From a virus, in IMG/VR virus record IMGVR_UViG_3300031521_000001: a DNA stretch of 64,000 bases; one strand, written 5' to 3'. The notes under the pieces were generated by a model, which saw nothing but the letters and a program-made list of their open reading frames with translations, was not told the DNA's origin and ran no database searches. A program made the translations under genes and the position numbers. Shown in pieces: positions 3,956 to 5,104 of the stretch. Within the stretch, counting starts at the first letter, position 1. The number at the start of each line of letters is the position of its first letter.

Positions 3956-4171
3956 TTATTCACTTATTTCGTTTAACTGTTTTAACTTTTTTTTTCTTAT
4001 TTCTTTTTCAGTATAAAAATAATTATTTATATTTGATATGAATATTTCTTCAAAATCATAAAAATAATATTCATTAATAAATATAAATCCGTTATTATTC
4101 TCATTTTTGCCATAATACATTTTTCCTACTATAAAATTATCATTGTATGCTTTTTTACATAAATATTTCAT
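3956..4171 (-). CDS. family B small protein (MKYLCKK... C-term EKEIRKKKLKQLN)
   Basis: paralogous to 4426..4650 and 4686..4904; shared C-terminal DNA (ttctttttcagtataaaaataat). Confidence 0.7.
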   Translation of the reverse strand: MKYLCKKAYNDNFIVGKMYYGKNENNNGFIFINEYYFYDFEEIFISNINNYFYTEKEIRKKKLKQLNEISE

Positions 4172-4418
4172 TTAATTTTTTCAATTTAAGTTTTCTGTTT
4201 TCTCCAATATTAATAAAATAATCTTTTAATTTTGGTTCTAAATTTCCAGACACAACAAATTTGGTATTACAAACAAAAATATATTCATATGCTAAATATT
4301 TATTTTTCAATCTAATATTGCTTAGATTATATTTATTAAGATGAATAATATTATCACTATGATAATATTCTCCTGATTTAATATAACTAGAATAAGTTTT
4401 TATACATTTTAATCTCAT
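4155..4418 (-). CDS. family B-related small protein (C-term RKLKLKKLNEIFM)
   Basis: tail motif; tandem array. Confidence 0.6.
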   Translation of the reverse strand: MRLKCIKTYSSYIKSGEYYHSDNIIHLNKYNLSNIRLKNKYLAYEYIFVCNTKFVVSGNLEPKLKDYFINIGENRKLKLKKLNEIFM

Positions 4419-4425
4419 ATGTAAT

Positions 4426-4650
4426 CTACTGTAATTTTTTCAATTTTATTTTTCGTATTTCTTTTTCAGTATAAAAATAATCTTTTAATTTTGGTTCTGC
4501 AATTCCATCAATTACAAATTTATATCCTTTTAGATTAATATATTTAAAAAAAGAACCTGATAATAAATAATCAGAATGAATAATATCATCACAACTGCAA
4601 TAATTTCCAACATTAATGTTTCTATATGTTTTTTTACATAAATATCTCAT
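4426..4650 (-). CDS. family B small protein (MRYLCKKTY...EKEIRKIKLKKLQ)
   Basis: paralog. Confidence 0.7.
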   Translation of the reverse strand: MRYLCKKTYRNINVGNYCSCDDIIHSDYLLSGSFFKYINLKGYKFVIDGIAEPKLKDYFYTEKEIRKIKLKKLQ

Positions 4651-4685
4651 ATAATAATTTTAAGTAAAAACAAAGATACAATAAA

Positions 4686-4904
4686 TTATTTAATATTACA
4701 CAATATTTCTAATTTTATTTTTCGTATTTCTTTTTCACTATAAAAATAATCATTTATTTTTGGAGAACAATATAGATTATTATCATCTGTTAAAAAAAGT
4801 AAACTATTTATTTGAATCATTTTAGAATTAGTTAAAATAACACAATCATAAAATTTTCCAATAATAATATCTTTTGAATATGTTTTTTTGCATAGATATT
4901 TCAT
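4686..4904 (-). CDS. family B small protein (MKYLCKKTY...EKEIRKIKLEIL); true start likely the ATG at 4904 (the track start at 4910 is a GTG)
   Basis: paralog; the ATG overlaps the upstream TGA (ATGA). Confidence 0.7.
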   Translation of the reverse strand: MKYLCKKTYSKDIIIGKFYDCVILTNSKMIQINSLLFLTDDNNLYCSPKINDYFYSEKEIRKIKLEILCNIK

Positions 4905-5104
4905 TTGCACTTATTCATTATTGTTAATATTTCATCTTTGTCATTGATAGTATATTTTTTTAAATCATTCATTATATTTAAAGAGAATGAATCTTCAAAT
5001 AATACTACATCACTTTTAAAATATTTAAAAAAATTCAAATAATCACCTGAATTTGATATATTTTTAAGTGAATCTTTTGATATAAATCTTTTGTTGAATC
5101 CCAT
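4901..5104 (-). CDS. hypothetical small protein
   Basis: ORF; first gene of minus-strand array, downstream of a divergent promoter region 5105-5256. Confidence 0.6.
   Translation of the reverse strand: MGFNKRFISKDSLKNISNSGDYLNFFKYFKSDVVLFEDSFSLNIMNDLKKYTINDKDEILTIMNKCK

Follow-up and report, generated by a model that had tools for sequence, protein, structure and literature searches.

The prohead protease of T4-type phages cuts after an L/I-x-E site to release the capsid targeting sequence (CTS) from internal proteins. Encapsulin cargo-loading peptides (CLPs) and the C-terminal helices by which the scaffolding proteins of P22 and herpesviruses bind the coat are peptides that dock to shells of the HK97 lineage. 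In the SspB XB tail and the F-box-like ankyrin/PRANC proteins of poxviruses, a constant docking module is joined to variable binders, and Sso7d and chromo-like proteins combine an SH3-like barrel with a C-terminal helix. The internal proteins of T4-type phages are diverse small anti-defence proteins that share only the CTS (PMC3012670). Here we describe a C-terminal peptide, which we call the RK-KL tail, that closes small minus-strand proteins encoded in a 64,000-nucleotide stretch of IMG/VR virus record IMGVR_UViG_3300031521_000001. We refer to the whole of this stretch as the window, and positions are those of the window unless a related contig is named.

Occurrence and conservation of the RK-KL tail

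The tail pattern is real, specific to one clade and previously undescribed. A six-frame translation of the window contained 14 matches to RK.KL..[LIVM], all 14 on the minus strand and 1–6 amino acids from a stop codon. A relaxed form, [RK][KR].[KR][LIVMF]..[LIVMF], required within the last 22 amino acids, brought in 10332 and 44304 and raised the number of open reading frames (ORFs) to 16. Scores of a profile hidden Markov model (HMM) built from the 16 window tails were bimodal in the window, with 15 intact ORFs at 23–36 bits and the next best at 3.6 bits. The original prediction of a C-terminal tail shared by small minus-strand proteins is borne out by these counts, and 16 of about 148 window genes carry the tail when a frameshifted gene at 46878 is included.

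We considered whether the tail could be a chance product of Lys/Leu/Asn-rich, AT-biased composition, as the window has a GC content of 23% and K, L and N are abundant in its proteins. However, when residues were shuffled within each protein (2000 shuffles), the resulting proteomes averaged 0.13 strict matches at any position and never exceeded 3, compared with 13 observed in the crude gene set (14 in six frames), all of them terminal. The bimodal HMM scores also argue against chance, as does Prevotella phage Lak-A1, in which 200 kb at 25–26% GC contained no ORF above 5 bits whether or not TAG was read as a stop. These controls already refute the composition explanation, and the probability that we leave to it is negligible.

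The tail also occurs outside the window. For database scans we used a degenerate DNA pattern encoding E-x-R-K-x-K-L-x-[KQE]-[LIMF]-N, which was found three times in the window (0.00 expected from window shuffles) and in at least 118 stretches in IMG/VR. Among the IMG/VR matches listed, 47 of the 53 in-ORF matches on contigs of at most 29% GC lay at most 11 residues from the stop, and the corresponding figure for higher-GC viral contigs was 1 of 10. Among the matches listed for GTDB genomes, 8 of 36 in-ORF matches were close to the stop; these matches were single, mostly non-coding or internal, and gave no lead to a host or prophage. On related low-GC IMG/VR contigs we counted 165 or more different tail proteins, whose genes frequently lie in long tandem arrays. 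In one of these contigs, L015 (IMG/VR UViG_3300028763_000016), at least 25 consecutive genes have the tail or a variant of it, and almost all genes of an array of about 10 kb (3753–13683) end in this way.

Searches of general databases returned little. The tail-only profile, which is too short for a global census, gave only four hits at E ≤ 1e-3 among 1.84 billion representative proteins: one window protein, two new small proteins matching at their C-termini and one low-complexity repeat protein. Homologue searches retrieved only the window's own proteins or close homologues when started from the tail alignment, and only six close homologues when started from protein 52952. Ten window tail proteins had no Pfam or PHROG match below E = 0.01, and 82 cluster representatives of the wider set showed sporadic matches of their bodies (gp32 and a few PHROGs of unknown function) with no shared family. 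No Pfam-A or PHROG family covers the tail. A string search of the literature found none of six tail octamers, and a literature search on C-terminal motifs in huge or jumbo phages found nothing relevant. A weak tblastn match in the 642-kb phage LR756502 was rejected as chance; the 40 kb around it is without tails.

The tail-bearing genes of the window, with the position of the core motif and the tail HMM score, are as follows; the last entry, 61959, is the one that was rejected.

3956–4171, minus strand: family B, 71 amino acids, core RKKKLKQL at 3974–3997; 35.8 bits
4155–4418, minus strand: family B, 87 amino acids, core RKLKLKKL at 4173–4196; 31.9 bits; tail overlaps the start of the next gene
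4426–4650, minus strand: family B, 74 amino acids, core RKIKLKKL at 4432–4455 (R encoded by CGA); 32.3 bits
4686–4904, minus strand: family B, 72 amino acids, core RKIKLEIL at 4701–4724 (R encoded by CGA); 33.7 bits
9591–9917, minus strand: Cys-rich protein, 108 amino acids, core RKTKLDKL at 9612–9635; 30.5 bits; new relative to the earlier list
10332–10628, minus strand: 98 amino acids, variant core RRKKLNKL at 10344–10367; 26.1 bits
39337–39672, minus strand: 111 amino acids, core RKRKLEKL at 39349–39372; 23.2 bits
43904–44128, minus strand: SH3-like protein (MKIGDIVIC...), 74 amino acids, core RKRKLNKI at 43925–43948; 28.4 bits
44304–44624, minus strand: 106 amino acids, variant core RRKKVKNL at 44319–44342; 23.4 bits; new relative to the earlier list
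46878–47055, minus strand: frameshifted gene, core RKKKLEQL at 46893–46916; found by motif match
52952–53185, minus strand: SH3-like protein, 77 amino acids, core RKKKLNNI at 52967–52990; 33.3 bits; structure modelled
55319–55534, minus strand: alpha/beta protein, 71 amino acids, core RKEKLDKI at 55331–55354; 26.2 bits; structure modelled
58540–58809, minus strand: 89 amino acids, paralogue of 58799, core RKEKLDEI at 58558–58581; 28.8 bits
58799–59059, minus strand: 86 amino acids, core RKEKLIEL at 58817–58840; 24.6 bits
61318–61758, minus strand: 146 amino acids, core RKKKLNKL at 61330–61353; 24.4 bits
61751–61966, minus strand: small "AYxLY" family, 71 amino acids, core RKEKLIQL at 61772–61795; 28.1 bits
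61959–62201, minus strand: not a member, ends ...KTKLRIDKLNKITESND; 3.4 bits, without R-K-x-K

All of the positions given in the original prediction were confirmed except 61959, which we rejected as a tail gene on account of its score of 3.4 bits and the absence of R-K-x-K; 9591–9917 and 44304–44624 had been missed. The decayed gene that had been proposed at 46878 was confirmed. Its tail is encoded in a frame that stays open over 54 codons, yet the ORF starting with ATG is only 32 amino acids long; further upstream, the ATG at 47053 belongs to a different frame, with a run of six T between, which looks like a homopolymer frameshift. This gene is also an example of the tail helping to find genes below the usual cutoff, as had been expected.

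Conservation of the tail acts at the protein level, since the codons at the conserved K, L and N positions follow background usage. In the window, tail residues are encoded by AGA or CGA (R), AAA or AAG (K) and TTA, TTG, CTT or CTA (L). Across 148 distinct tail DNAs, codons at K2, K4, L5, L8 and N9 matched usage in the bodies (p = 0.05–1), and only R departed from it, with an excess of AGA to which the search pattern contributed by ascertainment. In paralogue pairs with 20–30% body identity, the R, K, K, L and L positions were about 85% identical, a figure that is inflated and partly circular because members were picked by HMM plus regular expression, and positions x3, x6 and x7 were about 45% identical. 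Orthologues in the related loci L004, L009 and L032 have kept the tail while their bodies diverged. For example, 10332 ends in ...MKIEQFLRRKKLNKLNKL and its L004 counterpart in ...DKNINSFLRKKKLKLLK, with a diverged body and a conserved tail, and the L004 orthologue of 9591 also retains the tail.

The alternative is a signal at the level of nucleic acid, with the peptide as a by-product. Such a signal could be an initiation region for the downstream gene (Bacteroidota-type, without Shine-Dalgarno sequence), a 3'-end signal embedded in the coding sequence, which had been one of the earlier suggestions, or a microhomology for cassette recombination. The genes are tightly packed, several tails overlap or abut the next start codon, and tail DNA is A-rich, all of which would fit. 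However, in addition to the background usage of codons at K, L and N, L is written as TTA, TTG, CTT or CTA and R as AGA, CGA or AGG, sequences 3' of the stops of tail genes are not conserved, and the spacing from tail to next start ranges from overlap to more than 90 nucleotides. Non-tail genes of the same operons lack the motif, and the tail closes 39337, a lone minus-strand gene amid plus-strand arrays with no same-strand gene downstream. We consider a nucleic-acid signal very improbable, and the 3'-end version of it is not supported by codon usage, downstream spacing and 39337.

Portability of the tail among protein bodies

The proteins that carry the tail had been described as otherwise unrelated. 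This stands insofar as several body architectures are represented, but it was an overstatement, as the window contains paralogues and at least 62 of the 165 tail proteins (at least 38%) belong to one SH3-like superfamily. A BLAST comparison of tail-trimmed bodies from the window linked only the four family B genes to one another and 58540 to 58799; 43904 can also be aligned with 52952. In the wider set, profile–profile comparison of tail-trimmed bodies joined the largest clusters as the SH3-like superfamily, and SH3 HMMs missed 103 of the 165 proteins. The SH3-like bodies, taken without the tail, are predicted to form a five-stranded barrel that superposes on SH3/KOW domains. A large share of the tail pattern is family conservation, and the pattern is robust and abundant.

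Bodies of other kinds carry the same ending. In the window, these are the alpha/beta protein 55319, the Cys-rich protein 9591, the 58540/58799 family, the 146-amino-acid protein 61318 and the "AYxLY" protein 61751, look-alikes of which (resemblance judged by eye only) form an array with the same tail in L015. Several CxxC proteins are also among the tail-bearing bodies, and proteins of L015 with a hydrophobic N-terminus and a transmembrane anchor carry the variant tail ...RYLKLKKL. A gp32-like relative at 5514–6095 in L015 matched PF08804 at 30.5 bits (cut-off 26.8), and phmmer found the T4/RB69 gp32 core at E = 4e-6. In an alignment, its tail, ...SISNIIRKEKLKEL, falls opposite the final residues of the T4/RB69 gp32 core, ...DLSEMTSKDKFKSF, with the same K-x-K-Φ-x-x-Φ spacing. 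This alignment may be a coincidence, or it may hint that such a helix is native to some barrels.

Conversely, some SH3-like bodies have other endings, such as ...KKFNL in the window (19994–20341) and ...KYNI in L053. Two bodies of the SH3-like "MKxGDxVV" type (L039, 10651–11342; L106, 5388–5732) end in ...NYEEAAVLRD..., which resembles UVR by eye. Because the tail closes several body types and SH3-like bodies take other endings, the tail behaves as an exchangeable module, with most copies probably arising from tandem duplication of genes that already bore it. The predicted discrete, portable C-terminal module is thus found on SH3-like, alpha/beta, Cys-rich, gp32-like and, in the variant form, membrane-anchored bodies.

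We also observed a second and larger paralogue family in the window, comprising 37 genes, most of which start with MKYIK... (judged from the start-codon contexts shown). These genes are located at 4–3227, 11054–14298, 22742–26902 and 36836–39342 on the plus strand and at 19994–20987 on the minus strand, and at least one member (19994–20341) has an SH3-like body. Every one of them closes with [NDK]-K-[FY]-N-[LIV] directly before the stop. TGA serves as the stop in 30 of the 37, where it usually shares bases with the following ATG (..TTATGA). Since codons for F (TTT/TTC) and N (AAC/AAT) vary, this ending is also selected at the protein level, with the final L, I or V partly set by the NTA-TGA overlap.

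Predicted structure and candidate function of the tail

Alignment of the 82 cluster representatives gave a core consensus of R1 K2 x K4 L5 x K7 [LI]8 N9 x [IL]11, preceded on the N-terminal side by [YF](-8/-7) [FI] x [STD](-5) [IL](-4) [KQ] E(-2) [LIY](-1). Position 4 was K in all 82 representatives, R having been allowed by the filter, position 5 was L in 78 of 82, and position 8 was L or I. R1 was imposed by the filter, which only 5 of 165 HMM-selected proteins failed. The chain typically ends 3–6 residues past position 8 (range 1–18), with residues of varying identity, and 219 of 222 HMM hits of at least 15 bits ended within 10 amino acids of the C-terminus.

The tail is predicted to form an autonomous C-terminal alpha-helix of about 13–16 residues. 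The AlphaFold2 (AF2) model of 55319, made from a single sequence with a predicted local distance difference test score (pLDDT) of 70, shows one helix followed by two strands, with the C-terminal helix spanning residues 57–70. The model of 52952, made from a seven-sequence alignment (pLDDT 80), has five strands and a C-terminal helix at residues 62–76. In both models the tail helix directly follows the last strand. The consensus would fit such a helix, with S/T/D at -5 and E at -2 as a putative N-capping box and N9 as a putative C-cap; capping-box residues were present in 33 of 82 representatives and 83 of 160 unique proteins. On a helical wheel that we drew from the consensus, R1, K4, L5, L8 and the hydrophobic residues at -4, -1 and +11 would form one face, and x3, x6 and E(-2) would lie on the other, which may vary.

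A C-terminal helix with Leu/Ile and Lys/Arg could be an in-plane amphipathic helix that targets membranes, of the MinD/FtsA membrane-targeting sequence (MTS) type. However, the tail helix is not membrane-seeking, because positions -4 to +11 combine a low mean Eisenberg hydrophobic moment (0.21) with a very low mean hydrophobicity (-0.46), far from surface-seeking values; the tail segment has a net charge of about +3.3. In addition, the strict discrimination at R1 and K4 would be unexpected for lipid binding, and the variant tail occurs on proteins that already have an N-terminal transmembrane segment. Membrane targeting is therefore a highly improbable role.

A degron, one of the functions suggested originally, would be read by an AAA+ protease (ClpXP, Lon or a phage ClpP-like protease), either removing a class of early proteins on schedule or delivering bound targets as the SspB XB tail does. 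The tail is terminal, basic plus hydrophobic and common to many small proteins, and a ClpP-like ORF is present among the large ORFs of related loci (identified by eye). The ClpX signal of the MuA type, RRKKAI, is also basic. However, the residues past L8 vary in number (1–18, mode 3–6) and in identity, leaving no fixed end group, and the motif is predicted to be helical, not extended. Furthermore, the motif is internal in four ORFs of related low-GC loci, with 25–130 residues downstream. Two of these (L004, 5879–6418, minus strand; L039, 1282–1713, plus strand) have ...IYW[FY]YDE..[VI]RK.KL.K[IL].N near the N-terminus, followed by 90–130 residues, which shows that the helix needs no free C-terminus. 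Both the varying end and the internal copies disfavour a degron, which we regard as unlikely.

We tentatively favour the reading that the tail is a docking helix recognizing one common putative partner, and give it a little less than an even chance. It is suggested by the one-sided conservation of the helix, the discrimination between R and K, the occurrence of the tail on different bodies and its interchangeability with other endings. The R/K/L face would dock a single partner, encoded by phage or host, and would thereby bring many small soluble proteins, mostly SH3-like binders but some with unrelated bodies, to one place or machine. The tail would thus act in trans on the common partner, and the module would have spread by tandem duplication of tail genes with occasional transfer onto new bodies.

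Several points weigh against a docking helix. With at least 38% of tail proteins sharing one SH3-like body, much of the conservation could be ordinary family conservation. The helix has no flexible linker before it, so it could pack on its own domain, and the AF2 models are of moderate confidence (pLDDT 70–80) with little or no alignment. Small size and AT bias are usual among the 82 BLAST clusters, and hidden homology among them is possible.

The main rival explanation is that the helix is intrinsic to one vastly expanded and fast-diverging family of small SH3-like beta-barrels, each consisting of a barrel and a capping helix in the manner of Sso7d, chromo or KOW-L24 architectures. The helix would be kept by descent for fold stability, nucleic-acid binding or self-association, and the bodies that seem unrelated would be undetected relatives or rare recombinants. 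However, the tail is also found on 55319 (alpha/beta), 9591 (Cys-rich), 61318 (146 amino acids) and the transmembrane-anchored proteins, and SH3-like bodies with other endings exist. A helix buried on different bodies would not be expected to have invariant R and K at the centre of its hydrophobic face, and SH3 HMMs failed to detect 103 of 165 tail proteins. We consider an intrinsic helix a serious possibility, though a less likely one than docking.

For the docking helix, our leading guess by analogy is that the partner is the procapsid interior or scaffold, so that the tail would load cargo for co-injection. Targeting, with packaging as one example, was among the functions suggested originally and may apply. 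A C-terminal cargo-loading or address peptide, directing about a hundred small effectors into the procapsid of a megaphage or another phage-built compartment, is a doubtful proposal in this specific form. No shell or scaffold gene was found among the annotated ORFs of the window.

Four further candidates were rejected because of what such signals require. Beta-clamp/PIP motifs require Q and aromatic residues, which the tail lacks, and a DnaK-binding motif requires a contiguous hydrophobic core, also absent. A classical nuclear localization signal (K-K/R-x-K/R) does not match the tail in register, and the genome resembles that of a phage. An arrest peptide requires a fixed distance to the stop, which is variable here.

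Source phage and comparison with known systems

The source of the window is most likely an uncultivated megaphage, for which we infer a host of Bacteroidota type. Short genes are tightly packed, and the crude gene set of 148 genes covers 88% of the window. Matches to Pfam and PHROGs are phage-like and include a PPK2-HAD fusion, a polynucleotide kinase-phosphatase, a microbial PARG, an epimerase, a radical-SAM protein, a TnpB-like protein and a 403-amino-acid phrog_2087 protein, for which the nearest deposited phages are Prevotella Lak megaphages (about 38% identity) and Tenacibaculum phages. Window proteins recur on JGI, ENA and Logan metagenome contigs of up to 711 kb, and the IMG/VR relatives of the window are 113–256 kb long. 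A megablast search of window positions 1–20000 against INPHARED phages gave no match.

Several other features were observed in the window and its relatives. The PPK2-HAD fusion (21094–22737, plus strand) joins polyphosphate kinase 2 to a "Swiss Army Knife RNA repair" HAD domain, and a relative of it is present among the large ORFs of related loci. At 39719–42091 on the plus strand, a radical-SAM-like gene is followed by a TnpB/IS605 OrfB-like gene (Cas12f1-like TNB domain), a pair that is possibly a mobile insertion adjoining the lone tail gene 39337. Among the large ORFs of related low-GC IMG/VR loci, we identified by eye several DnaK/Hsp70-like proteins, a ClpP-like protease, an NAD-dependent ligase-like protein and tail-sheath-, baseplate- and portal-like proteins.

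Non-coding features were also present. A full-length GOLLD RNA (RF02032) lies at 14729–15164 on the minus strand (243 bits, gathering score 150) within a 3.8-kb stretch without plausible ORFs, and a partial GOLLD 3' end (14394–14495, minus strand; model positions 306–415, 30.8 bits) is located just downstream of it. The non-coding region at 16090–18130 contains two interspersed repeat families, a 67-nucleotide unit present eight times and a 75-nucleotide unit present six times. The minus strand of the 67-nucleotide unit has a weak cloverleaf-like fold that is not significant (z = -0.7), and the repeats have no Rfam or tRNA match; they may be degenerate tRNA-like or small-RNA genes plus promoters. 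Two unusually long tRNA matches of 89 and 100 nucleotides (54490–54578 and 54710–54809, minus strand; 41 bits each) may hold introns or be misread, and ARAGORN called only 54490–54578, as a tRNA-Phe with the odd anticodon AAA.

Compared with the systems introduced above, the tail lies outside the CTS, encapsulin-CLP, ClpX-signal and MTS classes, because defining features of these classes are absent from it. The tail is not N-terminal as a CTS is, given how close to the C-terminus the HMM hits end. A [LIVM]-x-E sequence was present at -4 to -2 in 22 of 82 representatives and 49 of 160 unique proteins, and the same positions fit the capping box. There is no GSL element of the encapsulin type in the consensus E-Φ-R-K-x-K-L-x-K-L-N. 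ClpX signals such as ssrA (LAA) and MuA (RRKKAI) have fixed C-terminal residues, whereas the tail has variable residues after L8 and internal copies, and the hydrophobic moment and hydrophobicity of the tail differ from the high-moment, surface-seeking helix of MinD and FtsA. Nonetheless, the tail may still work like a CTS or an encapsulin CLP.

Other known systems resemble the tail in part. Like the SspB XB tail and PRANC proteins, tail proteins would combine a variable, putatively target-binding domain with a constant C-terminal docking element and have expanded as paralogues in large viruses, although the motif and the putative partner are different and the tail helix has no preceding linker. 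KOW/ribosomal L24, Sso7d and chromo domains have no detectable sequence relationship to the SH3-like tail proteins, and here the helix also follows bodies that are not barrels. The docking peptides of HK97-lineage shells are likewise short and C-terminal, basic in the case of P22, and dock proteins that are extended or have nothing else in common to the inner shell surface. However, they have no sequence similarity to the tail, and far more proteins are tagged here (about 10% of genes).

Huge phages encode hundreds of small ORFs without assignable function, and a peptide tag on about 10% of small ORFs defines a functional class without recourse to homology. The tail also provides an experimental handle and a gene-finding cue for short or decayed ORFs. 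Even as no more than the capping helix of one family, it would identify a paralogue expansion that is among the largest in these genomes. Should it be a loading or localization signal, this phage group would come with a portable tag ready for use, and the tail would show how megaphages organize their large effector repertoires.

The nearest functional precedent is the CTS of T4-type internal proteins. In both cases a short terminal peptide is the sole common feature of highly diverse small phage proteins, and the CTS also functions when moved to reporters, among them GFP and a nuclease. The two differ in that the CTS is N-terminal, while the RK-KL tail is C-terminal and unrelated in sequence. 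If cargo loading proves true, the tail would mark a large, diversifying arsenal delivered with the DNA and would be a C-terminal, massively expanded counterpart of the CTS.

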